Source: a virus
Taxonomy: Duplodnaviria > Caudoviricetes
Reading direction: 5' to 3' (one strand)
DNA: 62,323 nucleotides
Virus record (IMG/VR): IMGVR_UViG_3300042898_000840
Location: 1-62,323 of that record
Shown here: piece by piece, positions 1-33,970 of the stretch
Position numbering within the stretch: the first letter of the stretch is position 1
How the letters are laid out: the number at the start of each line of letters is the position of its first letter
Made by a program: the position numbers and the translations under genes
The notes under the pieces: model-generated
Databases searched by the model: none
What the model was told of the DNA's origin: nothing
The model's input: only the letters and a program-made list of their open reading frames with translations

Positions 1-127
1 GTTATTAATAATAAATTTTAAATATGCCAAACGAAATCAAACCTGTTATTGTTGCCGATGATGGAATCAATAGATCTATCAAACCTGTTATTGTTGCTGA
101 CGATGGTGTCAACAAAGTAAAAAAAAA
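1..127. repeat. Terminal direct repeat (copy 1), identical to 62197-62323; circular assembly overlap
   Basis: The sequence matches the last 127 nt exactly. 127 is a common assembler k-mer size, and the 60663-62204 gene runs directly into the start of the 24-9119 gene across the junction. Confidence 0.95.
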
Positions 128-3100
128 AGAGGTTTCACAATCAACACCAAACGGAAAAGTTATTTCATCGGAAGCATCCAAGACGGAAGAACAAAAGCGT
201 TCGGACTCTTTATCTTCAGCAAGGAGATGGTCTAATGTAACTGAACCAAAAGCTGTTCCTAGTAAATACAAGACAGATGATTACATTGACGTTTTAGAAA
301 ATAAGCCTTTAAAGAAAAAGAAAGTTGTAACTGTACAACCTGATAAGTATGCTCCAGAAGTAAAGGTTACTGAGATTGATGCTCCTACAGAAAAGGAAGC
401 TGAAATAATGATGGAAGAAGATTTCGGTAGAAAGGAATTTGATGCCTATCAAAATATCAATAAGATAGATAAAAACATTGCTTTCAAAACTGAAGATCAG
501 GCAGTAAAAGAATTAAGAGAAAGATTTAAGGGAAGTGGATTTATTTTTGAAACTACTGGCGTAGGAAATAAAATAAAAATATCTACATCTACGAATGGTG
601 GATTAACGACAATAAATTCAAAGGAATTTGATTTAATTCCTTCAACATTATATGGCCAATCACAAACTGGTATGCCAGTTGCTCAAACTGAAGATTTAAA
701 CAGAATAAGCAACGATAAATATAACGAGATTGTTGACTTCATGAGTAAGTCAATACTTAAGAAGACAGATAAAGATTTCTTAAAGAAGGAAGTAAAGGAT
801 TACGGTCAGCTTGTTAATCTTATGGCTGATAATCCCTATAAATATGGAGAAGAATTTTTAAATCAGTATGATACTGATAGATGGTTTGACAATCAATATA
901 GGGATCTTGTTATTGAATCAAAAAGTCTTAAAAGAGATGAAAACCAACTATTAGCTCAGTATGATGAATTCGTAAAGAATCCAACTAGTATAGAGCAAGA
1001 ATCTGAATTAAAAAATAAAATAAATTCTCTTGACGAAAGAAAGAATATACTTAAAAGCAAGTATGATGACTTAGGTAGATTGAATGATAAACTAAAAGTA
1101 TCGTCAGCTGTATATTACAAGAATAAAGAAAAACAAGGAAATACTGTTGGATTAATATCTAAGAGTTTTATAAAGGGTGCTTTTAATATGGAGAAAGCAT
1201 TGTCAGGAATAGCTGCTGATGTAATGCCTTATGTACTTCCAGAAGGGTCATTGATGCCCGATGTGCAAAGAGAAAAACTTAAGGCATCTGGAATGACTGA
1301 TAATGAAATAAAAGATTATGCTTCAAAGCAACTTAGAAAACAAATAGTTCCACAAATAGAAAAGGGATTAACTGATTTGGTTTCATTTGGAACTACAGAC
1401 GAGTATATTCAATCTAAAGATAGAGGTGATTTAGAAAAAGTAGCATCTTTCTTATCTGAAAGTATAGGTACTGCTATATCGGCAGGTGGCAATCCAGCAT
1501 TACAAAAAGTAGCATTTTTCAGCCAATCTTATAATGCTATTGAAGATGAAATGAACTCTAGTCAATTTGATGGTTTAAATCAATTTGAGAAAAAATTAAT
1601 TTCAGTTCCTTATGCAATGACAATAGGTGCATTGGAGAACTTAGGGTTTAAATTTGCAACTGGTACTACAAAGAATCCAATATTTAATAAGTTGGTAAAT
1701 AATATAGTTTTTAGGACTTTCTCAAACTTACCAAAAAATGCATCAGCAACATTAATGCAGAATGAATTGAAAAGAAATACTGCTGCTATGCTTGCTAATG
1801 CTGGATTAAGAATAGCAGGTGGAGCTTTGGTAGAAGGTGCTGTTGAAGGTACTCAACAGTTAGATGAGATAGCAATAAAGAATATATCAAATGCTATAAC
1901 AGACAAGGATTACTTTCAAGATGTTCCTGACATTACAACAGCAAAGGGAATTAATCAAGCAATTGGAGCTGCTGCTACTGATGCTTACTATGGTGCTCTA
2001 GGTGGTTTAATCATGTCTAGTGGATCTGAATCAATTTCAGCAATAAGAGATGGCTATAGCAATAGAAAGAGCGATGATGATTTTGCTGTGTTTTCTAATT
2101 CTTTAAAAGATAATAATCTTAGATCATCTATAGAATCAGATATAAAATCTAAAATAGTAAGTGGTGATATAACAAAAGAGGAAGCTAAGGCTCAGATTGA
2201 ATCAATGAATAAATCATATTCAATATTGAAGTCTATTCCTGACAACTTAAGTTTAAGAGACCAAAGAGATTCATTTAATTTGATTCTTGAAAAACAAAAA
2301 ATACAAAAGGAAACAGAAGGGAAAGACCCTGCTCTCGTAGCTGCTCAAACAGACAGAGTAAACGAGATTAATGAAGAACTAAAAACAATAAGCAAAAATG
2401 CCGTTCAAGTCGAAACAACAGGTGAAGTACCTGTACAGCCAAGAGCCGAAGTTGGCAGAGAAATGGAGGAAGGAGAATCCCAAACAGAACCTCAAGTCGT
2501 TGCCGAAAAAAGTAAAGCAATCCAAGAAGTAATAGATAGAAGAAGAGAGTTATTAAGTTTGGAAAGTCAGCAAAAATTAGATGCTGACCCAATTGAGTAC
2601 ACTAAACAATCTTTAAAAGAGAGTATAGATTATTATCAATCAATGGATGATATTAATCCTATTCAAGAACAAATCTTACAAGAATATAAAGATGATTATA
2701 ATACATTGACTTCAGAGAAAGTTGTAGCTGAACCAATTGTTAGACAAGAGCAACAACAAAACTTAGTCACACAAGAAAATGTTGAAGAGTTGAGATCTCA
2801 ACAAACTACACCTAGAGCGCAAAAAATCTTCACTGCTGCTAAGTTGGCAATGAAAGCATTACCTGGAGTTAAAGTTTATGTACATAATACAACTCAGGAA
2901 TTTGATCAAGCAATCGGTCAAAAATCTGTAGATGGGGCAAAAGGTGCTTATGTAGATGGAGAGGTTCATATAAATTTAGAAAATGGTGCTGACGTTGTAA
3001 CAATGCTACATGAATCAATGCATCATGGTCTTGTAGTGAAAGGTATTCAGTCTGGAGCAATGCTTGACTTAGCAAAAGGATTAAAGTCAGTTGTGTCAGA

Positions 3101-6100
3101 TAAAGGATTAAAGCAAAGATTAGAAGGCTTTATATCAGGATATGATGCATCAGAAACCGCTGAAGAATATATAGCCGAACTTGGTGCTATCATGGCTGAA
3201 GCTCAACAAGAGTTAACTACAACTAAATTCCAACAATTCAAAAACTTAATTAATAAGTTAGCCAAAAAGCTTGGATTACCAGTTGTATTTGCAGCGTCAG
3301 CAAATGCTAAGAATGCTGTTGACTTTATGAATAGTTTAACAAAATCAATTGCAACTGGACAAGAGATAAAACCAACCACTCCATATTCAGTTGGTGAAGC
3401 TGTAAGCGTTAAGCCTAACGCACCAATGAAAGTAAAATATCAAAGAAAAGCAGAATATAATGTTGACTTTGTAACAAAAATTCCTACTAAAAGCTTAAAA
3501 GATGTAGTTGATAAATACAATGGAAAAGTATTTATGATACAATCAGATGCGACAGGAGTTGGATATGATTCAAATGGTGACCCAATATATGGTGGTATTG
3601 GTTATATGGCTATAAAAGAAAATGTAGATGGTAAAATTGGTTTTGCTTCTGTAGATATGAATACGGCAAAAACAACTATATCTAAAATGATTAATAGGTA
3701 TGGGCCAAATGAAAAGATAGCTGTTTTAGTTATGGTTCAGAACCCTAGCTCAACTGTTGGTAATTACTATGGTGGTAAATATTTTGGACGAGCGTTAATA
3801 GAATTACAAAAACAAAGCAAAACGAACTACAAAGAAATAGCTAATTCATTTATAGATTTTATTGAGTCTAAACAATCAGTTGTTGACGCGTTGAATAAAA
3901 ACAAAACACATCAAAAATTAATTGAACTTATTAAGAATCCAGGGAAATTTGATGAAGTTGGTTTTGCTCAAGAGTTTGTTAAAGATACTACATTTGATGT
4001 AAGACGAGAAATATTAAAAACATTATTACCTGAGAAGGCTGATATAAGAACTAATAAATCTACACCATATATTAAACAATCATTAAAAGACTTAGGTTTT
4101 AATAGAATGGCTTTCTTAAATGAATACGGTGATAATACTTTATTCACTGAAGACATGTATGCTTCTGATGAAGGAGGTTTATTAGCTGCTGGATTTGAGA
4201 TGACATTACCTACTGCTGAAGGTATAGATCAGTTTGTGTCAGGTATTGAAAATAGAGGAATTAAACATCACTTATTTAATGGTAAATTACCATACACAGA
4301 TGAATCATTTTTATTAGATGGTCTATATCCTGTAAATGAAAACTTTAGTGAGTTTGCTAAATCACAAATGGTATTTAATGAAGAAAATCTTAACAAAGAC
4401 CAATTAAAGAAAATAGTACAGGAAAAATTCCCTACTGATAAATCATACGATGATAAATATACCAGAGTAAACTCAAAGAATTTTGTTAAAACACAAGATA
4501 GAACATATACTCATTTAACATCTCCAAATAAAATTAAGTTTAAGGCTGAATTACAAGAAACAAATCCTGAGTATTTTAAAGAACAACGTCCTGATGTATC
4601 TACAGATATTGCTAGAGGAATGGGATTTACAGCTGAAAAAGGTGCAAAGCAAGAGGCATTAGTGGAGAAAGCAAAGACAAAAGGATTCTCAAAAGTTAAA
4701 TTCCAAAAGACTGCACCTAATGGTAAGCCATCCAATCTGAATGATAAGCAATGGGAGCAGGTAAGAACACCTGAGTTTAAGAAATGGTTTGGAGATTGGG
4801 AGAATGATCCTGCTAACGCAAGTAAAGTAGTTGATGAAAATGGTGAGCCGCTTGTTGTTTATCATGGAACTAGAGAAAGCTTTGATGAATTTTCTAGTGA
4901 AGTTAGGCCAAGAAATTTTAGACAAGAAGCTGTAAACTATTCATTTTGGTTTACATCAAATGAAAAGAACTCTGAACTTTATGGAAATCAAGTAATGGAG
5001 GTTTTCTTAAACTCAAGGAATCCATTAGAAATAGACTATACTAATCCAGAGTCATATAGAGAAATCGTTGTTCCTGCTGATAAACCAAGAGCAATGTCAA
5101 TCGCTGAATTCAATGAGAAAAAAGGAATGATAAAACATTCTGAAATGACAAAAGGAATTGAACTCAGAATGAGAGAGGATAGTACAATTGATGGTATAAT
5201 TCATCGAAACATTAAGGATATTATTTTATCTGATAATTTTCAAGTGTTCGGACCTAACCAAATAAAATCAGCTACTGAGAATGTAGGTACATTTAGTGCT
5301 GAAACACGTAATATTAAATTCCAAAAGGACAACACGCAAAAAGAAGCAATACAAAAAGCAAAAGAGAAGTATACACTTTCAGTAGAAGATAGAGGAAATC
5401 CACATAAGCAAGGTGTAGATGCTGCATTAAATGATTTAAGAAAGTCAGATTGGTATAAGACTACTGATGATACACAAAGAGAAAATGCCGAGAGAGAGTT
5501 AAAAGCGTTCTTTGGTGAAAAACTTAAGAAAGCTCCGTCAGTTGCTAAGATACTAGGTAAACCAAAACCTAAGAAGGTAACTGTAAATGAAATGACGGCA
5601 TATAAAAATGAACTTAGACTACAGGCGAAAGCTGCTCGTGATGCTAAGGGTGATTTGAATGCTAAAAGAAGAGCTCTTGCTACTGCTATTAGCGGCATGG
5701 CTAAGACTGGTAAGATAAAGACTGCTCAGGCTAGCGTATTGATTAAAAGAATAAGCAATTTAAATCTAGACAATCCAGTAATGGTTGAGCGATTTGTTGA
5801 CTATGCTTCCAAAGTATTTGATCGAGCCGACTACCAACAAAGATTGGACGATGCGTTTTCAGTAAGGAAGAGTATCCGCAAGCTATTAAAGACTGACAAC
5901 CAAGCTGAAGTTTCAGGAATGGCTAAGGCATTTACAAAGATCGATCCATCGATGGTTGAAGACATTGATGCATATATTGAGATGGCTGAGAAAGTCAAGA
6001 ATGCTGTTAAGCCATCGCGAGTTAAAGGTCTTGATGTTGTAATGAAAGAAGCTGCAAATATTGCTGAGATATCTGAATACACAAATGAAGAGATTGCAAG

Positions 6101-9100
6101 ACAAGATCAAATTAAGAAAGATGAGTTATTAGCTACTTATGATTTCTTGGAAGTTGATATGTCATTGAAAGACATGCAAGATGTAATCAATGCATTGAAA
6201 GATCCAACTAGTCAAATGGATATAACTGAAAAAGAAAAGTATGTCAAAGATTACTTGAATGGTAGATTTGGAATTATGTCATCAATACTTGAGTCAATGT
6301 TCAAGACAGGCATTGATCCAATGACTGGAGAGGAAATAACATTTGATGAAAAGCAAAAAGAACTAATTAAGAGAGCACTGAATATTGACTTGAATGAAAT
6401 GTCAGTTAGAGATGCAATTAAAATTGTTGAGAGCTTAGAGAATTTTATAACTAATCAAATAACAAGTGGACTTGAAGCAGCAGTTAGTTCTTATGAAGGA
6501 GCTATGAATGTCAAGTCACTTGTCAATAGAGGTAAGAAAGCTAAATCTTTGAGATTATTTTTTAGTAACTACATTGGTAAAATATATAGCGAGCAATTAT
6601 TTTCTCTTCCAATGTTAATGGAAAAGATGTTTGGTGGTGTAACTAATTCATTAGACGTAATGAATAAGATGGGTCTTATTAAATTAATCAATGGAGTTAA
6701 TAAAGCCAATAGACAACATAATGATATTTTAGACCAGTATTCAAAGCAACCTTTTTACTCTACAAAAAACGCTCTTGGTAAATATGTCATGAATAAAGAT
6801 TTCATGGATGCTGAGAATGTATACGAAAGAGGTATGCTTGCATTCTTGAAAAGAAATCTAGTCGGAAGTCCAGCTGAAATGAAAGCAGAGTTTGAAAGAA
6901 GAGTTAGAATGATACAAGAGTCTATCAATAAATTAACTGAAGATGGTGATCCTAAAGAACAAAAAATGGGAGAGCTGTATCAAAAGATTTATGATAAGCT
7001 AGGTGTATCAGAAATGGACATGGATGTAATTAATGCCAATGCATCAAAAAATAATTTAGATGCTGTTAATTGGTGGGTTAACCAATGGTCTCAACATTAT
7101 TCAGATTTATCAGATATAAGTTTGTCTGTGTACAATACTCAATTAGGTAGCGATTTAAACTATACTCCAGACAAGTATAAAAAGTTATCTTCAGAAAATC
7201 AATCACTTGATGAAGGAGCTGTTGAGAGAAATGGTGCTTTTGCAATATCTATAGATTATACCGATAAAAATAAGACTGGTGTACTTATGGAAACAACAAG
7301 ACCAAATGCAATGCCTGATGGTAGATATATTAGTCTTGATTTCGATACAAATAATTCAAAAGCATTAAAGTCGGCACTTACTGATATTAATACTGCTTCT
7401 GCTATTCGTCAAGTCGATGGTTTTATTAATTCAAAATCATTTAAGAAATTAATTCCTGAGTCTGAGGATAGGTCTATAATTACTAAGAGAATCAATACTT
7501 ATATCAGAAGAGCAAAAGGTAAAAGCATTGTTGCATCTGATACAATTCAATATCTTAATAAGCTTGTTAATTTTGCTACAGCTCTTGGCGTAGGTAAGGC
7601 ACTTGGTGGAATTAACCAAGCAGTAAGTCAAACAATTCCAGTAATGGTAAATACTATTGTGAATGCTGGGAGATTTGATTTTGCTGGAGCTGATTTCAAT
7701 ACTTGGTTAGATAAATCTGGACTTCCAATTTCAAATCGTGGTCTTGAATCACAATCAACAGTAGATTCAATTGATAGAAAAATAGATATGAAAGGAACTG
7801 GAGTTCAAGAAGCATTAAAGTCTGTTACTGATTTAAATCAATGGTACTTAAAGCAGTTCTTAGTTAGGCCTGATGTTTTTGTTGCTAGATCATCATTCAA
7901 GTCTTATTATTTACAAAATTTAAAACGCAGAGGATTAAGTACTGATATTGATTGGAATACGCATGAAATGGATATGGATGCTGCTGAATATGCTCAAGCT
8001 ATGATTGACAGACAGCAAAACATATCTGATCCTATGTTAGCAGGTGAATTTTTGTCAAGTGATGACCCAATTAAACAGATAGCTAGAAAAGTAATTCTTC
8101 CATTTGCTTCATTTATTCTTAACCAAAAGGCTAGGATGTATAATGATATGATGACTATTAGTAGTAAAACAACAAGTAGACAAGATAAAATAATTGCTTA
8201 TAGATCATTAACTGGACTAGCTACTGAATTAGCTACATATCAAATGATTGGATTTGGTATAAGAAGATTATATGATATGATTGCAGCGTCATTACTTGGT
8301 GATGAGGATGATGAGGAAACAAAGAAAAAGAAAATAATTAACGCTACTAAGTACCCAATAAAAAGTATAGTTAATGATATTTTTTCTCCAATCCCAATGA
8401 CTGATGGAATTACTACTTGGGGATTGAACCAAGCATTAGCTCAATATCCTTGGATGACAAATAAAGAAATAAAGGATGCGATTGAAAGCAGAAATAAGGT
8501 TCTAGAATTAAAGGGAGAATCTAATATGACTGAAGCTGAAGAGAAAGAATTTATTGCCAAGATTAAAGAAGAAGCAACATACCAAGTTTTTGAAGATGAA
8601 TTTAATAGAAGTTACGGTATGATTGGTATAGCAGGAAGTACTTATCAAGAGCTAGGTGAAATTGGTAATTTAGCCACAACAGGAGAATTTACTGATGAAT
8701 ATCAAGGTAGAGAAACTACTAAAAAACTATTAGAGTCAGATCGCGAAAAGGTAAAATACGCTGTTCCATTTATGATAGCATATTCAACTGGATTATTGCC
8801 AAAAGATGTAGGTTCAATAGGTAGAAACTATGTAAATAGAATCAAGAAGAAAGCTATTACTGAAAAGCAATTCGAACGATACGATGCTGTACAGAAAGAC
8901 TTAGGACGTAATCTTAAATCTTGGGAAGTAGAATTGGTGAAAGCTAAGAAGGAATCTGAAACAGCCGTAGATGAAGTGAAGTTCATCGAGCGAAATGGTG
9001 GATTGACAGAACGTCAAGGAAGAGAATACCTAAAGCTAATGAAAGCTATCGGTGAACCAAGTGTTTCAGATATAGTTAGAATTAAAGAAGGCCAAACAGC

Positions 9101-9119
9101 CGATCAAATTTTAAAGTAA
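24..9119 (+). CDS. Giant polyvalent protein, probably injected from the virion; contains a zincin-like HExxH peptidase and an ART-PolyVal-like ADP-ribosyltransferase domain
   Basis: 3031 aa; last of three genes after the tail module. MLHESMHH at ~3003-3026 with a downstream AEEYIAE. FKKWFGDW...NGEPLVVYHGT...FWFTS...VFLNSRNPL...NQIKSAT at ~4710-5310 matches the pattern of ART domains in polyvalent proteins. Confidence 0.8.
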   Translation: MPNEIKPVIVADDGINRSIKPVIVADDGVNKVKKKEVSQSTPNGKVISSEASKTEEQKRSDSLSSARRWSNVTEPKAVPSKYKTDDYIDVLENKPLKKKKVVTVQPDKYAPEVKVTEIDAPTEKEAEIMMEEDFGRKEFDAYQNINKIDKNIAFKTEDQAVKELRERFKGSGFIFETTGVGNKIKISTSTNGGLTTINSKEFDLIPSTLYGQSQTGMPVAQTEDLNRISNDKYNEIVDFMSKSILKKTDKDFLKKEVKDYGQLVNLMADNPYKYGEEFLNQYDTDRWFDNQYRDLVIESKSLKRDENQLLAQYDEFVKNPTSIEQESELKNKINSLDERKNILKSKYDDLGRLNDKLKVSSAVYYKNKEKQGNTVGLISKSFIKGAFNMEKALSGIAADVMPYVLPEGSLMPDVQREKLKASGMTDNEIKDYASKQLRKQIVPQIEKGLTDLVSFGTTDEYIQSKDRGDLEKVASFLSESIGTAISAGGNPALQKVAFFSQSYNAIEDEMNSSQFDGLNQFEKKLISVPYAMTIGALENLGFKFATGTTKNPIFNKLVNNIVFRTFSNLPKNASATLMQNELKRNTAAMLANAGLRIAGGALVEGAVEGTQQLDEIAIKNISNAITDKDYFQDVPDITTAKGINQAIGAAATDAYYGALGGLIMSSGSESISAIRDGYSNRKSDDDFAVFSNSLKDNNLRSSIESDIKSKIVSGDITKEEAKAQIESMNKSYSILKSIPDNLSLRDQRDSFNLILEKQKIQKETEGKDPALVAAQTDRVNEINEELKTISKNAVQVETTGEVPVQPRAEVGREMEEGESQTEPQVVAEKSKAIQEVIDRRRELLSLESQQKLDADPIEYTKQSLKESIDYYQSMDDINPIQEQILQEYKDDYNTLTSEKVVAEPIVRQEQQQNLVTQENVEELRSQQTTPRAQKIFTAAKLAMKALPGVKVYVHNTTQEFDQAIGQKSVDGAKGAYVDGEVHINLENGADVVTMLHESMHHGLVVKGIQSGAMLDLAKGLKSVVSDKGLKQRLEGFISGYDASETAEEYIAELGAIMAEAQQELTTTKFQQFKNLINKLAKKLGLPVVFAASANAKNAVDFMNSLTKSIATGQEIKPTTPYSVGEAVSVKPNAPMKVKYQRKAEYNVDFVTKIPTKSLKDVVDKYNGKVFMIQSDATGVGYDSNGDPIYGGIGYMAIKENVDGKIGFASVDMNTAKTTISKMINRYGPNEKIAVLVMVQNPSSTVGNYYGGKYFGRALIELQKQSKTNYKEIANSFIDFIESKQSVVDALNKNKTHQKLIELIKNPGKFDEVGFAQEFVKDTTFDVRREILKTLLPEKADIRTNKSTPYIKQSLKDLGFNRMAFLNEYGDNTLFTEDMYASDEGGLLAAGFEMTLPTAEGIDQFVSGIENRGIKHHLFNGKLPYTDESFLLDGLYPVNENFSEFAKSQMVFNEENLNKDQLKKIVQEKFPTDKSYDDKYTRVNSKNFVKTQDRTYTHLTSPNKIKFKAELQETNPEYFKEQRPDVSTDIARGMGFTAEKGAKQEALVEKAKTKGFSKVKFQKTAPNGKPSNLNDKQWEQVRTPEFKKWFGDWENDPANASKVVDENGEPLVVYHGTRESFDEFSSEVRPRNFRQEAVNYSFWFTSNEKNSELYGNQVMEVFLNSRNPLEIDYTNPESYREIVVPADKPRAMSIAEFNEKKGMIKHSEMTKGIELRMREDSTIDGIIHRNIKDIILSDNFQVFGPNQIKSATENVGTFSAETRNIKFQKDNTQKEAIQKAKEKYTLSVEDRGNPHKQGVDAALNDLRKSDWYKTTDDTQRENAERELKAFFGEKLKKAPSVAKILGKPKPKKVTVNEMTAYKNELRLQAKAARDAKGDLNAKRRALATAISGMAKTGKIKTAQASVLIKRISNLNLDNPVMVERFVDYASKVFDRADYQQRLDDAFSVRKSIRKLLKTDNQAEVSGMAKAFTKIDPSMVEDIDAYIEMAEKVKNAVKPSRVKGLDVVMKEAANIAEISEYTNEEIARQDQIKKDELLATYDFLEVDMSLKDMQDVINALKDPTSQMDITEKEKYVKDYLNGRFGIMSSILESMFKTGIDPMTGEEITFDEKQKELIKRALNIDLNEMSVRDAIKIVESLENFITNQITSGLEAAVSSYEGAMNVKSLVNRGKKAKSLRLFFSNYIGKIYSEQLFSLPMLMEKMFGGVTNSLDVMNKMGLIKLINGVNKANRQHNDILDQYSKQPFYSTKNALGKYVMNKDFMDAENVYERGMLAFLKRNLVGSPAEMKAEFERRVRMIQESINKLTEDGDPKEQKMGELYQKIYDKLGVSEMDMDVINANASKNNLDAVNWWVNQWSQHYSDLSDISLSVYNTQLGSDLNYTPDKYKKLSSENQSLDEGAVERNGAFAISIDYTDKNKTGVLMETTRPNAMPDGRYISLDFDTNNSKALKSALTDINTASAIRQVDGFINSKSFKKLIPESEDRSIITKRINTYIRRAKGKSIVASDTIQYLNKLVNFATALGVGKALGGINQAVSQTIPVMVNTIVNAGRFDFAGADFNTWLDKSGLPISNRGLESQSTVDSIDRKIDMKGTGVQEALKSVTDLNQWYLKQFLVRPDVFVARSSFKSYYLQNLKRRGLSTDIDWNTHEMDMDAAEYAQAMIDRQQNISDPMLAGEFLSSDDPIKQIARKVILPFASFILNQKARMYNDMMTISSKTTSRQDKIIAYRSLTGLATELATYQMIGFGIRRLYDMIAASLLGDEDDEETKKKKIINATKYPIKSIVNDIFSPIPMTDGITTWGLNQALAQYPWMTNKEIKDAIESRNKVLELKGESNMTEAEEKEFIAKIKEEATYQVFEDEFNRSYGMIGIAGSTYQELGEIGNLATTGEFTDEYQGRETTKKLLESDREKVKYAVPFMIAYSTGLLPKDVGSIGRNYVNRIKKKAITEKQFERYDAVQKDLGRNLKSWEVELVKAKKESETAVDEVKFIERNGGLTERQGREYLKLMKAIGEPSVSDIVRIKEGQTADQILK
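36..115 (+). repeat. Imperfect 42-bp tandem duplication encoding IKPVIVADDG twice
   Basis: atcaaacctgttattgttgc(c/t)ga(t/c)gatgg occurs at 36 and 78. Confidence 0.9.
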
Positions 9120-9268: not shown

Positions 9269-10377
9269 CAGAACAAATGTGTTAACCTGGCAATCTGCCC
9301 ATGGTCAGGATGGTGAATAAAACCCTCAATAGCTTTGGGTGCATGCTGATATCCATTACGATGATGCCAGCCATCAGTCCCACTAGGCGAACGTAATGTC
9401 TCCACACATACTGACATGTAGTCTTTTGATGACTTATGATGTATGTGATGTCCATATATATAACGATGATTGCATTCATGCCAAGAAGCACCCGTTTCAT
9501 GAGCCATAAGTAATGGTAAGTCTTGTTGCTTTGCTCCATCCATATGAGTAGAACCGATTAAGTTTTTACCATATGATATATATTTACGATGCTTCATGTC
9601 ATTGTCAAAAGTAACTTGCTTGCATTTACCAAACCATGCTTCAATACATTGCAGCAACATAAATCCAGACATAAAGTCATGGTTACTTGGATTGTATACA
9701 ACATGAACATCAGCTATAGTCATTAGTGTTTCAATGACTTCAATAAGTAACTTCTTAGCTGTGATGAAGTTATCATACCACATCCCATCAGTATCCTGTG
9801 GTGTACCACTTGTTGTTGTGCGTTTTGGATTGTCAATATGCAGAATGTCATTACCAGCTATAAAAATAATCTTATCTATATTGAAAGCTGCTGACTTATT
9901 CAGTATACCATGCAGGCCTTCACGAACTCTCTGAACAGCTACCTGCATATTGTAATTCTCGCCAGTCTCAAAGCTAGAACAGATCTTACCAATATGAATA
10001 TCGGCAGGGTCAAACACAAGGCAATGTGGATCACATGACACTTCTCTTCTGAATGTCGGATACCTTGGACTCCATTTAGATATTTCCTCAATTAGGTCTT
10101 GCTTAAAGGCATCGTGATCAAATTCGTTATTCTTCTTGACGTTGATACTGAAGTGTTTGCCTTTGTGCCAGTAGTGGCTGACATTATCATGATCTATGCC
10201 AGCTTCTTTACACGCTTCATAAAGACCTCTATCTTTTGTCCAATTGTAAATATTTCTTTCAATTGATGAGTAGTGATCTTTTAAATTGAATTCTTTTATG
10301 ACTTGTTCGGCAATTTCTCTTTTAGTTTTACCTTCCTCAAAAAAAAGTTCAATTGCTCTATTCTGGTATATCTTCAT
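9268..10377 (-). CDS. Calcineurin-like metallophosphoesterase with N-terminal HTH
   Basis: Motifs ADIHIG, GNDILH, SNHD, HMD and GHHIH; N-terminal KTKREIAE helix-turn-helix. Confidence 0.8.
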   Translation of the reverse strand: MKIYQNRAIELFFEEGKTKREIAEQVIKEFNLKDHYSSIERNIYNWTKDRGLYEACKEAGIDHDNVSHYWHKGKHFSINVKKNNEFDHDAFKQDLIEEISKWSPRYPTFRREVSCDPHCLVFDPADIHIGKICSSFETGENYNMQVAVQRVREGLHGILNKSAAFNIDKIIFIAGNDILHIDNPKRTTTSGTPQDTDGMWYDNFITAKKLLIEVIETLMTIADVHVVYNPSNHDFMSGFMLLQCIEAWFGKCKQVTFDNDMKHRKYISYGKNLIGSTHMDGAKQQDLPLLMAHETGASWHECNHRYIYGHHIHHKSSKDYMSVCVETLRSPSGTDGWHHRNGYQHAPKAIEGFIHHPDHGQIARLTHLF

Positions 10378-24904: not shown

Positions 24905-25225
24905 TAATAATGTTGACTATATACAAATAATGTTGAAATATTTTAATTTTAGTGTTAATTTTCTATCTGATTATTAGTTAGTTATGTTAATTTTTGGGAA
25001 CTATACTTCCTACTATAAGAAAAAAATAAAATATATAAGAAAATAAGAAAATAGGATAATAGGAAAATTTCCCCGTTGTATTTTTTTTATTTTGGCTAGT
25101 TGGTAAAAAAGTCAACATTTCAACACTAAAATTGATTAATTGACTGATTATCAAGCAACTAACTTTTTTCAGTTAACACAAAATCGCAAATTTCAACACT
25201 ATTTTCAATAATTCCAACATTCTAA
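24905..25225. other. Candidate replication origin
   Basis: ORF-free and AT-rich; TGTTGA/TGTTAA repeats on the left face TCAACA/TTAACA repeats on the right across a purine-skewed spacer. Confidence 0.45.
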
Positions 25226-26923: not shown

Positions 26924-27109
26924 TTAAAATTTTGTTTTGGTTAAAAAATATTTATAAACTTCAGGAATATGTTTTTTGTAGTAAGGCTGTTCTGACTTAC
27001 ACCATTTTTTCAATTCTTCTTTATCTTTGAATGTTTGGTATTTGAATGTTATTTCTAATTCATCTATAAAATCTTGGACTGTCCATCCTTCCCATACGTG
27101 TCTATTCAT
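26924..27109 (-). CDS. Small early protein
   Basis: HVWEGWTVQDFIDEL...WCKSEQPYYKK. Confidence 0.7.
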   Translation of the reverse strand: MNRHVWEGWTVQDFIDELEITFKYQTFKDKEELKKWCKSEQPYYKKHIPEVYKYFLTKTKF

Positions 27110-27120
27110 GGCTATTTGTT

Positions 27121-27396
27121 TTACTCAGCGCACAATTCCCATGGCTGAAGATTAATAATTGCTTTTGTTCCTCCTAACTGCTTGACAATAAATCTTGCTA
27201 GCTTTCTATTTACTTTTTCATCTTGGATATGTGCACTACCAATTTGTTTCACGAGGTCTCTTGGTGATATACCTAGTATTCTATGGCAGAACTTAACGTC
27301 CTGCCCTAGATAGAATGATTTGTAACGTGATTTTGTTTTGATAATTAATGTCCAATTTCGATCGAATCCGTAATTCGATGATATTACTATGTTCAT
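27121..27396 (-). CDS. Small early protein
   Basis: FYLGQDVKFC; operonic. Confidence 0.7.
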   Translation of the reverse strand: MNIVISSNYGFDRNWTLIIKTKSRYKSFYLGQDVKFCHRILGISPRDLVKQIGSAHIQDEKVNRKLARFIVKQLGGTKAIINLQPWELCAE

Positions 27397-27398
27397 GA

Positions 27399-28106
27399 TT
27401 AATGGTTTAATATGTAAATTGATTTGTTTGATTTTGTTCCTAGTGTACCACTACACAAACCACATTTGCTACATGTAGACTTGAATCCTGCTTCCTTGCT
27501 TGCAGGACAATTGACAATTCCATCAATCTTTGATTCCGTAGCAATGTAACTTCTATATCCTTTCATCCTTGCGATAATCTCTCCGTTGATGTCATGCGTA
27601 GATGCCATGAAGAATTCACTTAATTCGTTACGCATCCATTGGTGAGTATATCCAGTCCAATTGTCTGCTACATTTGTCATTTCCTGAATCATCTTAATTG
27701 GGTGCAATGATGGTTCACCATACGTTCCGAATCGAACGAATGTTGATTTTGACATTTCTCTTGCTTTAAGAATCATATCGTACTTGAATGTAGGTACATT
27801 TTCGAATGTTGGATATTCTTTCGCAATACTTTTTAGCATGCTGATAAACCCAACATACTGATTGAATTTGTGCGTATAACATTTTCCGAATTCATTGAAT
27901 GGACAATCCAAGCAATTTGTATCAGCGTTACTGAAGAATGTCTTCATTCCATCATTCGTTCCATTGGCAATCAATTCATACTGTTTTCTGCTGAATGTGT
28001 ACGTTTGGACAATTTTTCTTTTCTTGTCTGATTCAATCTTATTGTTGCTAGTGGTTGACTTGCTGATTACTTGCAATGTGTCACCAATTCTAAAAATTAG
28101 TTTCAT
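27399..28106 (-). CDS. Cys-rich, putative Fe-S / radical-SAM-like phage protein
   Basis: CLDCP..CY, VRFGTYGEP, WTGYTHQW, FMAS, CPAS...CSKCGLC. Confidence 0.6.
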   Translation of the reverse strand: MKLIFRIGDTLQVISKSTTSNNKIESDKKRKIVQTYTFSRKQYELIANGTNDGMKTFFSNADTNCLDCPFNEFGKCYTHKFNQYVGFISMLKSIAKEYPTFENVPTFKYDMILKAREMSKSTFVRFGTYGEPSLHPIKMIQEMTNVADNWTGYTHQWMRNELSEFFMASTHDINGEIIARMKGYRSYIATESKIDGIVNCPASKEAGFKSTCSKCGLCSGTLGTKSNKSIYILNH

Positions 28107-28119
28107 GGTTATTTGTTTT

Positions 28120-28175
28120 GGTTAATATGCCGTATCACTACGGCATTTCGGATCATAAATCCTCATCAGTTAACC
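28120..28175 (-). ncRNA. Type I hammerhead ribozyme (HH-A)
   Basis: GGTTAA CTGATGA GGAT-ttatg-ATCC GAAA TGCCGTA-gtga-TACGGCA TA^TTAACC: full core, three perfect stems, AUA triplet. Confidence 0.92.
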
Positions 28176-28393
28176 TTTATTTCATTAATTATTTTGATCT
28201 CATATTCTAAATTATAAGACTGTACCGCGATCCCTCCACCATATTGTTTGTTATGGAATTTTCGACCGCTAATTTTTTTAGCTAGTTTTAAAGCGGTTGG
28301 ATAATCATCCGCTAATTGTAAGAAATGAAAAACATAACGTGGGTTTCCGTTTACGTCATTGTTTACTCTTGTAAAATCTTCTTTTGTTATCAT
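28166..28393 (-). CDS. Small early protein; its stop codon lies within the hammerhead core
   Basis: NNDVNGNPRYV...KQYGGGI; ends KVN-TGA. Confidence 0.75.
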   Translation of the reverse strand: MITKEDFTRVNNDVNGNPRYVFHFLQLADDYPTALKLAKKISGRKFHNKQYGGGIAVQSYNLEYEIKIINEIKVN

Positions 28394-28398
28394 GATTC

Positions 28399-28473
28399 CT
28401 ATTTTTTAAGTGTTATTATTTTCAATGTTGCTACAATGCTATACAATAGCATTAAATAAACAAATGTTCCCAT
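28399..28473 (-). CDS. 24-aa hydrophobic peptide
   Basis: MGTFVYLMLLYSIVATLKIITLKK; tagccATG start; fills the gap exactly. Confidence 0.5.
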   Translation of the reverse strand: MGTFVYLMLLYSIVATLKIITLKK

Positions 28474-28475
28474 GG

Positions 28476-28622
28476 CTAGTAATATATTTCGTTTAACGTG
28501 TACTTGTACTTCTTACAGACATAATTAATGAAGTTATTCATGTGGTTTATGTCGTTAAAATCTCTATTTACCACTACTATATCTTTGTGGTAAGGAGTAT
28601 AAAATTCGATTATTGCTTTCAT
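28476..28622 (-). CDS. Small early protein (48 aa)
   Basis: MKAIIEFYTPYHKD...; ATGA overlap. Confidence 0.6.
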   Translation of the reverse strand: MKAIIEFYTPYHKDIVVVNRDFNDINHMNNFINYVCKKYKYTLNEIYY

Positions 28623-28729
28623 CGTTGTTCAAATGGTATTAATACTTTTCTTGTTTTAATTAACGTTCCGTTAAGGAAAAATCCCCAAATCTCGAATTTA
28701 CCTTCTATCTTTAAAATTTGTGTTGACAT
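28619..28729 (-). CDS. Small early protein (36 aa)
   Basis: MSTQILKIEGKFEIWGFFLNG...; tagccATG start directly after hammerhead HH-B. Confidence 0.6.
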   Translation of the reverse strand: MSTQILKIEGKFEIWGFFLNGTLIKTRKVLIPFEQR

Positions 28730-28745
28730 GGCTAAAAATTTAATT

Positions 28746-28799
28746 GGTTAATACGGCAATCGCTTGCCGTTTCATCCATTTAGGAATCATCAGTTAACC
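28746..28799 (-). ncRNA. Type I hammerhead ribozyme (HH-B)
   Basis: GGTTAA CTGATGA T-TCC-taaat-GGA-T GAAA CGGCAA-gcga-TTGCCG TA^TTAACC; GUA triplet; U-U at the base of stem II. Confidence 0.88.
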
Positions 28800-28972
28800 T
28801 GTGAAGAAAATAAAATTGAAGAAATAAAGCCCATAAAACCACCACCATAAAACAAGGTAGCCATTATTGGCTCATGGTTAATGTATAGACTTTCGTTTGA
28901 AAATGTTACTACTGCTGAAGTAATTGAAGTAATCCCAAAGATCACCATCATTAATAAAAAAATTGTTTTCAT
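28790..28972 (-). CDS. Small membrane protein, first early gene; its stop codon lies within the hammerhead core
   Basis: Two hydrophobic segments; ends QVN-TGA. Confidence 0.7.
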   Translation of the reverse strand: MKTIFLLMMVIFGITSITSAVVTFSNESLYINHEPIMATLFYGGGFMGFISSILFSSQVN

Positions 28973-28995
28973 GGTTATTTATTTAATTGGTTAGT

Positions 28996-29041
28996 GCTTC
29001 CGTTCGTATCGCTCGAATAAAATTGTCATTCAATCGGAAGC
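28996..29041 (-). ncRNA. Candidate three-way-junction RNA (tRNA-elbow-like)
   Basis: GCTTCCG [ATTG-aatga-CAAT] ttta [TTCG-agcgata-CGAA] CGGAAGC. Confidence 0.6.
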
Positions 29042-29418
29042 TATAATTGTTAACTTGCATCACGCTTATATAGATGGAATCAAACCACCACAAGTTATTA
29101 AAGTATTATGTAATTTTCTTTGGTATATTATCGAAACAATAGAGAAAATTTAGGTCTATTGTACCAAGGTCTTCCACCTCTAGAGTAAGCCTATAAGCAA
29201 CTATTTTACACTCTATCTTTTTTTTGCAATCTTTTTCACTTGCCGAGAATCAATGAACGTTTACTTTAACAAAGGTCTAAACTATTTTTGACATTTCCTA
29301 ACTTTTTAACAAATTTTTGTTGAAAGCTACTTAATCAATCTATACTCATCGTACGTACATATTAAGTCTTTTAACATTGCTAGTAAGGATTTGTATTGTT
29401 TAGCTCGTTTGCTTATAA

Positions 29419-29448
29419 CAAAGATACGTCAGTTTTTCAGATTGTCAA
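29419..29448 (-). promoter_or_regulatory. Early promoter (-33 TTG, -7 TATCTTTG)
   Basis: TTG-N19-TATCTTTG matches the Bacteroidota sigma70 consensus and points into the early operon. Confidence 0.7.
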
Positions 29449-29737
29449 CAATTTTTTCTTGAAAGATTATCAAAATACGTATTTACACTTAGAAACGTCT
29501 ACGTAGTTTCACTTAGTTAAGACAGATATCGTGACTGAATAAATTACGTAAATGGCTATGAATCAGTAAGTTATAAGATATTAATATATTTAACATGAAA
29601 TACGTTTTTAATTAGTGAATTGAATTGAGATGTAACCCCCACAAGCCAAACGCACAATATTGTATGCATGTTTGAATGCATAACTAATTGATTATCAGTC
29701 AGTCACGCGGTTAGATTGGTGGTCTGATTGACTTTCT

Positions 29738-29765
29738 ATTTAACATAATTAATATTATATTACAA
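29738..29765 (-). other. dif-like XerC/XerD recombination site
   Basis: TTGTAATATAA-TATTAA-TTATGTTAAAT: 11-6-11 layout with a perfect XerD arm. Confidence 0.75.
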
Positions 29766-29845
29766 AGGTCGATTGGTCGGCATGTCAGCGCGCGTATGTT
29801 GGTGTCAATAACGTAATGCATGGAGACGCGTATACATCAACTAAC

Positions 29846-29897
29846 GGCAGGCAGGCAGACACACACGAACGGCAGGCAGGCAGGCAGGCAGGCAGGC
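29846..29897 (+). repeat. (GGCA)n microsatellite in two blocks (3 and 6 units)
   Basis: Direct reading. Confidence 0.9.
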
Positions 29898-30038
29898 TAG
29901 CAAAAAGCTGAAAATCTCAGCCGAAAAAACCAAATTGCACACCCCCCAGTCAATTTTTAGATCGTTTCCCCCGCGCGCAATTTTTCGTGGAATGGGGGTA
30001 TTACCCAAAAATTCCGTATATTTACCAAAAAAAAAGAT

Positions 30039-30410
30039 ATGCCGAAAGAAGTAAAAGTAGTCGACAAGACTTGGAGAAAGCGTCCATTTGGACAAGAGGG
30101 GATTATGAAAGATCCGAACAATCCGTATCCAGTTGATACTGAGAAACACACTACAGTAACAAGGGGTGGCAAGGTAAAGAAGAAGGTTGTTGGTGTAAAT
30201 AGGGAGACATCTCCAACTTTTTATGAGCCTGACTCGGAGCAGAGCGTAAAGATAACTAAGTTTAATAGGTCTGGAAAAGAAAAGAAGACTGTATCTCTTG
30301 TAAAGGATGAGAGCGGTAAGATAAAGAAGACTGTTAGTCGTAATGGCAAGGAGGCAGTAAGTGTTAAGCCAGGATTATTGGCTAACAGACGAATAAAAAA
30401 ATATATTTAA
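30039..30410 (+). CDS. Lys-rich hypothetical protein
   Basis: First gene of the plus-strand arm. Confidence 0.7.
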   Translation: MPKEVKVVDKTWRKRPFGQEGIMKDPNNPYPVDTEKHTTVTRGGKVKKKVVGVNRETSPTFYEPDSEQSVKITKFNRSGKEKKTVSLVKDESGKIKKTVSRNGKEAVSVKPGLLANRRIKKYI

Positions 30411-32109: not shown

Positions 32110-32132
32110 ACCCTCCAATCGGAGGGTTTTTT
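32110..32132 (+). terminator. Intrinsic terminator
   Basis: accctcc-aatc-ggagggt followed by a T-run. Confidence 0.8.
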
Positions 32133-32144
32133 GTTTTATTTCAT

Positions 32145-32152
32145 TAAATTTG
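32145..32152 (+). promoter_or_regulatory. TAnnTTTG promoter box for the chaperonin genes
   Basis: TAAATTTG 17 nt before ATG 32170. Confidence 0.6.
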
Positions 32153-32169
32153 TGTCAAAATACAATAAA

Positions 32170-33729
32170 ATGATAGTAAAACAAGTTCATTTTGGCGATG
32201 AAGGCCAAAAAAAGCTCAAGAAAGGCATCAAAACGATAGCTGGAGCTGTAAAAAGTACGTTAGGAGCAAGAGGACGTACAGTGTTAATTGAATCAGAGAA
32301 CCATGTTGGAGGTATGACGGTGACGAAGGACGGTGTTACTGTTGCTAAGTCGATCAACTTGTATGATCCGACTGAGAATTTGGCTGTAATGATGATGCGT
32401 CAAGCGGCAGAGCGAACTGCTACTGTTGCTGGTGATGGAACTACTACATCAATCGTGTTGGCTGAGGCTATTATTGACGCTGCCGATAAATACTTGTCGG
32501 AAACAGACAACGTTACTGAGGTAATTCGTGAGATCAACCATCTTGCTAGCATTGTTGTCTATAAATTGGACAAGAGGTCTAAGAAGTTAAGCGGCAAGAA
32601 GCTCGTTGACGTAGCAACTATAAGTGCGAACAATGACAAGGAGGTAGGTAAGATGATTGCTGATGCCTTTAGTGAGGTTGACATGGTTACTGTTGAGAAC
32701 AGCCAGACTACAAGCACGTATGTTGAGATAATTAAGGGTATGAAGATCGATAGGGGTTATGCTTCTAGAGTATTCATCAATGACTTCAAGAAGCAGGAGT
32801 GTGTGTTAGATAATCCGTACATTTTGATAAGTGATCATGAGATAAATAATATCATGAATTTGGAGCGTATTTTAGTTCCTATAGTGAGCCAAGGAAGGTC
32901 TTTACTTATAATTGGTGAGTTAGGTCAGAACGCATTGAATACGTTAAATGCCAATGTTGCTGGTGGTAAGATTAAGGCTTGTTCGATATTGCCTCCATCG
33001 TTTGGATACAGGAAGAAAGACTTGCTAGAAGATTTATCAGTCGCTTTGGGTGGTGTTTACTTCTCTGAGGACACTGGCGATGATTTGTCGTTAATAGATT
33101 TAGACAGTTTAGGTAGAGCTACTAAGGTTATTGTTAGTAACAACATGACGGTGTTCATGCATAGTGAGTCTAGGGAGGAAGAGATCAACAATAGAATTAT
33201 TAATCTTAAGGAGATGCGTGATGCGTCAACTAACGATAATGAGAAGAACTTCTTGAATGAGCGAATTGCCAATCTATCGGGTGGTGTTGGTGTAATCTAT
33301 GTAGGAGCGTTAAGTGACATTGAGCAGAAGGAGAAGAAGGATCGGATTGATGATGCTGTGTGTGCTGTTCAAGCTGCGTTGGAGGATGGTATATTACCTG
33401 GTGGTGGTGTAGCGTTGTTGGATATTGGTCTTACTATGTGTATACATGATACAGCAGCTGATAAGATAATGGGTGAAGCATTAAGAGCACCATTCAATCA
33501 GATTGTCACAAATTCTGGTAAGAATTGTTACGATATATTAATGAATCGACCTATGGGTGATGGCTATGACGTGAAGGGTGAGCAGTATGGCGACATGGTT
33601 AAGTTGGGTATTATTGATCCTACAAAAGTTACTAAGAATGCACTATTGAATGCTGTGTCAGTTGCAACGACAATTATGAGTACGAATGCTATTATCACAA
33701 ATGTAAGAGACTATGAAGGTTCTAAATAA
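32170..33729 (+). CDS. groL: Chaperonin GroEL (phage-encoded)
   Basis: TKDGVTVA, AGDGTTT, ERIANLSGGV, PGGG, GIIDPTKV; start moved to ATG 32170. Confidence 0.97.
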   Translation: MIVKQVHFGDEGQKKLKKGIKTIAGAVKSTLGARGRTVLIESENHVGGMTVTKDGVTVAKSINLYDPTENLAVMMMRQAAERTATVAGDGTTTSIVLAEAIIDAADKYLSETDNVTEVIREINHLASIVVYKLDKRSKKLSGKKLVDVATISANNDKEVGKMIADAFSEVDMVTVENSQTTSTYVEIIKGMKIDRGYASRVFINDFKKQECVLDNPYILISDHEINNIMNLERILVPIVSQGRSLLIIGELGQNALNTLNANVAGGKIKACSILPPSFGYRKKDLLEDLSVALGGVYFSEDTGDDLSLIDLDSLGRATKVIVSNNMTVFMHSESREEEINNRIINLKEMRDASTNDNEKNFLNERIANLSGGVGVIYVGALSDIEQKEKKDRIDDAVCAVQAALEDGILPGGGVALLDIGLTMCIHDTAADKIMGEALRAPFNQIVTNSGKNCYDILMNRPMGDGYDVKGEQYGDMVKLGIIDPTKVTKNALLNAVSVATTIMSTNAIITNVRDYEGSK

Positions 33730-33970
33730 GTTTCTGATTATCCAAAGAGTTTTGGACAAAGCAGAGAATAAGTCAGGTTTAATAATGACTATGGAGGACA
33801 AGCGTGAGTTAAGGTATAACAAGGCTGTTGTTGTGTCGGTAGGTTCGATGGTGTCGGGTATAACCGACACTGACGAAATCTATTTTGACAAGGCGGCAGG
33901 TCATGACGTTTTGATAGATGAGAAGCGTTTTACTGTAATTCAGGAGAAGGACGTTGTTTGCGTTCTTTAA
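33713..33970 (+). CDS. groS: Co-chaperonin GroES
   Basis: KSGLIM mobile loop, VVSVG; directly follows GroEL. Confidence 0.85.
   Translation: MKVLNKFLIIQRVLDKAENKSGLIMTMEDKRELRYNKAVVVSVGSMVSGITDTDEIYFDKAAGHDVLIDEKRFTVIQEKDVVCVL

Follow-up and report, generated by a model that had tools for sequence, protein, structure and literature searches.

A type I hammerhead with a U-U opposition at the base of stem II, probably a tolerated natural variant, in a widespread family of phage hammerheads

The element HH-B, in the genome of a phage from lake water, is probably a genuine hammerhead of type I that belongs to a phage family of wide distribution, the U-U opposition at 10.1-11.1 being a tolerated variant. 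The window, the whole 62,323-bp stretch of DNA that was analysed, is a complete virus record with direct terminal repeats. An earlier note on this DNA had placed a hammerhead at 28746-28799, with a GUA triplet, a U-U opposition at the base of stem II and the same stem I as a sister hammerhead, HH-A. The sequence, the fold and a covariance model of the family (R1, described below) agree with these exact coordinates on the minus strand, and the triplet, the opposition and the identity of the two stems I are all present in the sequence. The parts of HH-B are as follows.

28746..28799, minus strand: HH-B, complete type I hammerhead of 54 nt (sequence, minimum-energy fold, R1)
28799-28794, minus strand: 5' strand of stem I, GGUUAA (sequence)
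28793-28787, minus strand: core CUGAUGA, that is C3 U4 G5 A6 N7 G8 A9 (sequence, R1)
28786-28774, minus strand: stem II, UUCCUAAAUGGAU, with U10.1 at 28786 and U11.1 at 28774
28773-28770, minus strand: GAAA, that is G12 A13 A14 A15.1 (sequence), A15.1 (28770) pairing with U16.1 (28753)
28769-28754, minus strand: stem III, CGGCAAGCGAUUGCCG, with a GCGA loop, CGGCAA-GCGA-UUGCCG (sequence, fold)
28753-28752, minus strand: U16.1 and A17, giving the triplet GUA with a residue other than G at H17
28751-28746, minus strand: 3' strand of stem I, UUAACC (sequence)

The minimum-energy fold contains a stem I of 6 bp, a stem II of 3 bp plus the U-U opposition and a stem III of 7 bp including A15.1-U16.1. 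Stem I is open and stems II and III are closed by loops, as in the type I topology. Stem II begins with U-U, continues with U-A, C-G and C-G and is capped by the loop UAAAU (U-UCC-UAAAU-GGA-U), which agrees with the family consensus U-N-A-A-U. U-U thus occupies the position of the Watson-Crick pair, usually G-C, at 10.1-11.1; it is a documented, tolerated exception that does not exclude HH-B from the hammerhead class. Family features are also found in the periphery (loop II UAAAU, A at -1 and AA at +1/+2), from which we infer that loop II may form a tertiary contact with stem I or the flanks, as in an extended fast hammerhead. Identical contigs span HH-B in three lake-water DNA runs (X10, X18 and X23) of the four compared. 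The listed changes of a divergent contig from run X15 fall only in distal stem III (28759-28764) and at 28744, in a comparison that covers the piece from about 31 nt inside its ends and so bears on positions other than stem II. Among the RNA runs listed, none is recorded as containing the stretch.

For the isolated 54-nt HH-B RNA, the fold of lowest energy is the three-way junction (-14.9 kcal/mol, z -3.0), and none of 200 shuffled sequences folded as well. Hammerhead_1 (RF00163) and Hammerhead_3 (RF00008) of Rfam describe the same ribozyme class, yet neither matched HH-B at E<=10 in a 251-nt scan; for the models RF00163, RF00008 and RF02275-7 together, no hammerhead match to HH-B was reported in that scan or anywhere in the window, whether gathering scores or E<=10 were applied. 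HH-A gave only a mis-permuted Hammerhead_3 match, which scored 12 bits where the gathering score is 48.5. The absence of HH-B from the Rfam reports could point to a resemblance by chance or to an element other than a ribozyme, for instance the end of an ORF or the hairpin of a terminator. So could the 10 matches of the loose pattern CUGAUGA..GAAA..GUH in the window (1.74 expected), which lie mostly in coding sequence.

A model built from the family itself decides against this explanation. We fetched a family sample from IMG/VR viral contigs with a fixed-sequence pattern derived from HH-A and HH-B (stem I, core, GAAA, UA and stem I), which fixed U7 and A17 and left stem II unconstrained; the scan of IMG/VR was complete and yielded 113 stretches. 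A descriptor scanner requiring paired stems then parsed 165 hammerheads, 137 of them unique, from these 113 loci and the window. The R1 covariance model was made from a 61-column alignment of 60 G-C hammerheads, all taken from viral contigs other than the window and its nearest relative, L110. In an unfiltered genome scan, R1 recovered HH-B over the full length 1-57 with 64.0 bits (E 6.6e-13) and HH-A with 66.3 bits (E 1.8e-13), whereas all non-hammerhead matches in the 62-kb genome had at most 13 bits and E of at least 1. One such match, at 25132-25179 (13 bits, E 1), was considered as a hammerhead and rejected, having neither GAAA nor the stems. The sole pair of HH-B flagged as non-standard in the R1 alignment is 10.1-11.1. 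Thirteen of the 15 pairs in this alignment vary on both sides, giving a covariation score of 0.622 compared with 0.148 for shuffles and 0.03-0.12 for slid registers; the 100% pairing in the alignment is partly by construction, the scanner having demanded paired stems. The gap between the R1 E-value of HH-B and that of the next non-hammerhead match effectively refutes a chance resemblance, and the behaviour of the shuffled sequences argues in the same direction. A terminator is opposed by the lack of a U-tract after stem III; a sigma-70 promoter and terminator scan of 27900-30200 found no more sites than in shuffles and reported no terminator at HH-B. We therefore regard a chance or non-ribozyme origin as extremely improbable and treat HH-B as a hammerhead hereafter.

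The earlier note had proposed counting the U-U variant among phage hammerheads, and the family sample provides the count. The 137 unique hammerheads from the 113 loci and the window comprise 107 with G-C at 10.1/11.1, 13 with U-U (HH-B included), seven with A-C, four with an extra U before G-C, three with A-A, two with G-U and one with A-U. The U-U share of 13/137 applies to a sample ascertained on U7 and A17; of the 55 unique hammerheads that these loci contain outside the fetching pattern, only one is U-U. Counted by source, a U-U hammerhead occurs in 14 of the 98 sources holding a parsed hammerhead, out of 114 scanned (the 113 loci and the window). All 15 raw U..U pattern matches keep at least three complementary inner stem II pairs, a pairing that the pattern did not demand. 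The inner stem II of the U-U class exists in at least four versions (UCC/GGA, UCG/CGA, UGC/GCA and AGG/CCU) together with unrelated stem III sequences; the stem II UUCG-GUAA-CGAU was found with three different stem IIIs, and 10.2-11.2 is U-A or A-U in 13 of 13 U-U members. A complete IMG/VR scan for U..U with the GGUUAA stem I returned 50 stretches and 35 unique candidates. A strict parser accepts eleven of these as full hammerheads, one of them with GUC, and most of the non-parsing candidates are coding look-alikes. The matching scan for G-C with the same stem I gave more than 119 stretches among the matches listed. No common gene context was seen for the U-U members.

Recurrence in 13/137 members with a covarying inner stem II and unrelated stem IIIs argues that U-U is maintained and is not a product of decay; judged from these sequences, U10.1-U11.1 is a recurrent, maintained natural variant. 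The earlier note had left HH-B as either a rate-tuned natural variant with partial processing or a decaying copy. That it is a natural variant is supported by the 13/137 unique members, the 14/98 sources and the published report described next, and a decaying copy does not fit the otherwise intact core and stems.

The U-U pair itself is not new. Natural U10.1-U11.1 hammerheads were reported by Perreault et al. (2011; PMC3088659) in section 8, "Core nucleotide variation", and Figure 5. The authors found them surprising because only A15.1-U16.1 is a more conserved pair than 10.1-11.1, and they cite earlier mutagenesis in which U-U gave more cleavage than any other 10.1-11.1 mismatch. This paper was the only one returned by a full-text literature search for hammerhead together with U10.1 and U11.1. 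Like HH-B, its variants follow the hammerhead consensus apart from this mismatch at the stem II base. The section on core variation gives neither organisms nor rates for U-U; the present analysis counts the variant within a single phage family and sets HH-B beside the hammerheads of an orthologous site.

Folding calculations bear on what the U-U opposition does to HH-B. In the 134-nt native context, the minimum-energy fold is an alternative that keeps stem III and has neither stem I nor stem II (ensemble frequency 0.016). With the hammerhead pairs forced and 40 nt of context on either side, the predicted equilibrium occupancy of the hammerhead fold comes to 2.2e-4 in HH-B and 0.24 in HH-A. Class medians are 0.002 for 12 U-U members and 0.083 for 107 G-C members (Mann-Whitney p 1.7e-4, the sequences being non-independent), corresponding to an active fold predicted to be about 40-fold less populated in the U-U class. 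These occupancies come from a nearest-neighbour calculation that ignores tertiary contacts and co-transcriptional folding, and the lower values are compatible with attenuation but do not establish it. The opposition probably weakens stem II; it may slow folding or cleavage somewhat, with function not abolished. G10.1 is a metal ligand in canonical hammerheads (PMC7151607), which a U at 10.1 cannot supply, and this, like the alternative native fold, counts against the favoured interpretation.

U-U may have been selected, either because slowed or limited cleavage keeps both processed and unprocessed mRNAs or because it alters the metal-ion dependence. The lower predicted population of the active fold agrees with such an adaptive attenuation, as does the recurrence of U-U in 13 other loci with the constant U-A or A-U at 10.2-11.2. 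The position is also suggestive, 10.1-11.1 being otherwise the most conserved stem pair and one at which mismatches lower activity (PMC3088659, section 8). A precedent is the A6C natural core variant of Bcep176, which has a changed ion preference (PMC7151607). Like HH-B, it is a natural phage hammerhead deviating at a core-structure or metal-binding position, and it is still active; it differs in that the deviation is at A6 and not at 10.1/11.1, and in that the Mn2+ preference was measured there. Adaptive attenuation is nevertheless weakened by the lack of a visible common gene context among U-U members, by the omission of tertiary contacts and kinetics from the folding calculation, and by the orthologous site, where U-U is not conserved in five relatives. 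We consider selection of U-U for attenuation at the HH-B site possible though unlikely.

The orthologous slot, between the 60-aa ORF upstream and the 36-aa ORF downstream of HH-B, was compared in five contigs closely related to the window phage.

Window: U-UCC-UAAAU-GGA-U, GUA
L110: G-UCU-UAAAU-AGA-C, N7 = A, different stem III, GUC
L252: G-AUU-UGAAU-AAU-C, GUC
L253: an extra U, then GGAU-UCAAU-AUCC, GUC
L108: no hammerhead, the ORF stop passing directly to the leader
L054: whole slot missing

HH-B and the orthologous hammerheads differ in a compensatory manner in stems II and III. A predicted hammerhead is kept at the slot, with these compensatory changes, in most relatives, and the U-U state is, by the same comparison, specific to the window phage among the relatives compared. 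This lack of conservation argues against a site-specific adaptive tuning. The absence of a hammerhead from L108 indicates that processing at the slot is dispensable in at least one relative.

Such dispensability invites the explanation that HH-B is a decaying or inactive copy, the changes at 10.1 and 11.1 being the first step of loss. The empty slot of L108, the missing slot of L054, the status of HH-B as the sole U-U copy of four orthologous hammerheads and its low predicted fold occupancy all fit with this. We find it very improbable, however, because the family consensus is matched at C3-A9, G12-A14, A15.1-U16.1 and H17 as well as in all three stems, in loop II and in the A residues of the flanks, and because other lineages retain this U-U arrangement although their stem III has turned over completely. 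Moreover, the path from G-C to U-U takes two substitutions, and the G-U intermediate is rare (2/137). A tolerated variant in a genuine hammerhead remains the favoured interpretation. In L054 (genome G001), the single hammerhead, at 10005-10071 on the plus strand, is in an HH-A-like place. Its stem II, with U-U, is like that of HH-B (UUCC-UGAAU-GGAU), and its stem III is like that of HH-A; this mixture of stems suggests recombination or gene conversion between hammerhead copies.

Between about 29,100 and 9,268 the genes of the window lie on the minus strand, and from 30,039 on they lie on the plus strand; the leftward polycistronic transcript carrying HH-B is probably early. The following features surround HH-B or characterise the phage.

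28790..28972, minus strand: upstream 60-aa ORF, hydrophobic, ending ..GUU AAC UGA within stem I and the core of HH-B
28619..28729, minus strand: downstream 36-aa ORF, its AUG 16 nt past stem I, the start region kept in L110 and L108
28166-28393, minus strand: 75-aa ORF ending inside HH-A, Pfam Phage_TreK (E 3.9e-20)
28120..28175, minus strand: HH-A, canonical sister hammerhead with G10.1-C11.1, an AUA triplet and a stem I identical to that of HH-B
32131-33729, plus strand: GroEL, Pfam Cpn60_TCP1 (E 1.3e-52)

The 60-aa ORF stops at the UGA at 28792-28790 within the HH-B core, and HH-A terminates the 75-aa ORF in the same way, by the UGA inside CUGAUGA. The 60-aa ORF has no PHROG or Pfam match; homologues are present in L110 and L108. 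For the small flanking ORFs no match of known function was found in PHROG or Pfam, the PHROG matches being families of unknown function. Several unrelated contigs, among them L003, L074 and L084, have homologues of the 75-aa Phage_TreK ORF next to hammerheads. The phage GenBank collection contained no DNA-level relative of 27300-29300.

The closest cultured relatives of the phage-encoded GroEL come from Flavobacterium phages (39% identity), and the host is probably Flavobacterium-like; this affinity fits with leaders lacking a Shine-Dalgarno sequence. Several further observations concern the genome at large. An 85-aa ORF (33713-33970) follows GroEL at the position where related phage records annotate GroES. 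A single ORF of 3,031 aa occupies the record start (window 24-9119, plus strand). Two tRNA matches are on the minus strand: that at 18336-18435 spans 100 nt and has 36 nt inserted when compared with the model (33.9 bits), indicating a long variable arm or an intron, and that at 18501-18560 is short (60 nt, 42.9 bits), with the anticodon arm region mostly collapsed in the alignment.

The most likely role of HH-B, as its sequence and placement suggest, is self-cleavage of the leftward early polycistronic mRNA just 5' of the next ORF. The RNA would fold during transcription and is predicted to cleave itself between A17 (28752) and U1.1 (28751). By established hammerhead chemistry, the upstream mRNA would retain the whole ribozyme body and a 3' end with a 2',3'-cyclic phosphate, whereas the downstream mRNA would start with a 5'-OH and have a leader of 22 nt, rich in A/U and lacking a Shine-Dalgarno sequence. 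HH-A and HH-B enclose a 626-nt segment that holds ORFs of 36, 48 and 75 aa, and cleavage at both would free a 626-nt RNA carrying these three small ORFs, in agreement with published hammerheads flanking small phage ORFs.

All hammerheads of this genome have one stem I sequence, so that cleaved ends could re-pair and circular or spliced products are conceivable. HH-B would generate a 5'-OH end (UUAACC) able to pair with the body of HH-A at the segment's own 3' end, where hammerhead-catalysed ligation might circularise or splice out the three-ORF segment; the weaker U-U copy could then set the balance. Circular or spliced products have been sought in other hammerhead systems and none was found (Perreault et al., 2011, PMC3088659). 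The view that U-U marks a selected, distinct sub-class, slower or with a different metal-ion need in the absence of the G10.1 N7 ligand, which would grade the processing of the early transcript, appears decidedly unlikely to us, together with the related circularisation or splicing of HH-B and HH-A. Simple self-cleavage ahead of the next ORF is the role that we retain.

The family shares this arrangement. Stem I is near-invariant as GGUUAA/UUAACC, also in hammerheads that were not selected for that stem, with occasional covarying exceptions, such as GGUUUG/CAAACC and GACAAU/AUUGUC. The flanks have A at -1 in 121 of 137 members, at +1 in 125 and at +2 in 118, and an A-rich leader comes next. 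Of the 137 members, 124 are preceded by an ORF of 40 codons or more whose end lies close to or within the hammerhead. Its stop is the UAA of GGU-UAA in 35 cases, the UGA of CUGA in 24 (as in HH-A and HH-B) and a UAG at -8 or -7, adjoining or overlapping the start of stem I, in 17. The fixed stem I sequence thereby offers stops in two reading frames and serves as a stop in 59 of the 124 upstream ORFs. Downstream, the first AUG lies 10-19 nt past stem I in 109/137 members. Some family contigs carry 8-9 hammerhead copies in about 11 kb. R1 also matched the record MT497078.1 (L118) of the cultured Flavobacterium phage vB_FspP_elemoE_10-3D at 27093-27153 on the minus strand (39.5 bits, E 4.5e-7, intergenic); the record annotates a 35-aa hypothetical CDS over the opposite strand, and stem II appears poorly paired.

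Multiple hammerheads that flank small ORFs in phage or prophage transcripts and cleave in vitro have been described (PMC3088659; PMC6155905). As far as those descriptions extend, the phage and prophage type I hammerheads resemble HH-B in the catalytic core, the three-stem junction and the open stem I, and several close copies flank small ORFs of unknown function, as do HH-A and HH-B. The GGUUAA family differs from the published phage hammerheads in its nearly fixed 6-bp stem I, which often supplies the upstream stop, and in not being detected by Rfam. A description of this family was not found in our literature search; the supplementary alignments of the 2011 paper may contain it.

A second conserved structure lies upstream of HH-B. 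It is a 57-nt hairpin element, AUAGCUUCCG..CGGAAGCACUAACCA, at 28988-29044 on the minus strand, 15 nt 5' of the AUG of the 60-aa ORF. The element varies hardly at all in four relatives, and its 33-nt interior is invariant in them, compared with roughly 75-83% identity in the surrounding DNA. The outer stem shows two compensatory events, a U-A to G-C swap in L119 and an added G-C pair in L110, and the 3' tail is the same kind of leader as in the hammerhead 3' products. Sub-scans of 141-251 nt gave no Rfam match, and IMG/VR pattern scans found only the four relative contigs. This hairpin may act as a regulatory element in the 5' UTR or represent a processing motif that has yet to be described.

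The family to which HH-B belongs is large, with hundreds of copies in IMG/VR, and it escapes the Rfam models and is consequently missed by automatic annotation. The HH-B slot constitutes a compact natural comparison set, with U-U in the window phage, G-C in two relatives, an extra U plus G-C in one and no hammerhead in one. It permits a direct test of the weight that the most conserved stem pair has for cleavage rate and mRNA fate. The biological role of phage hammerheads is described as open in a review (PMC6155905), and the slot offers a comparison set with which that role may be addressed.
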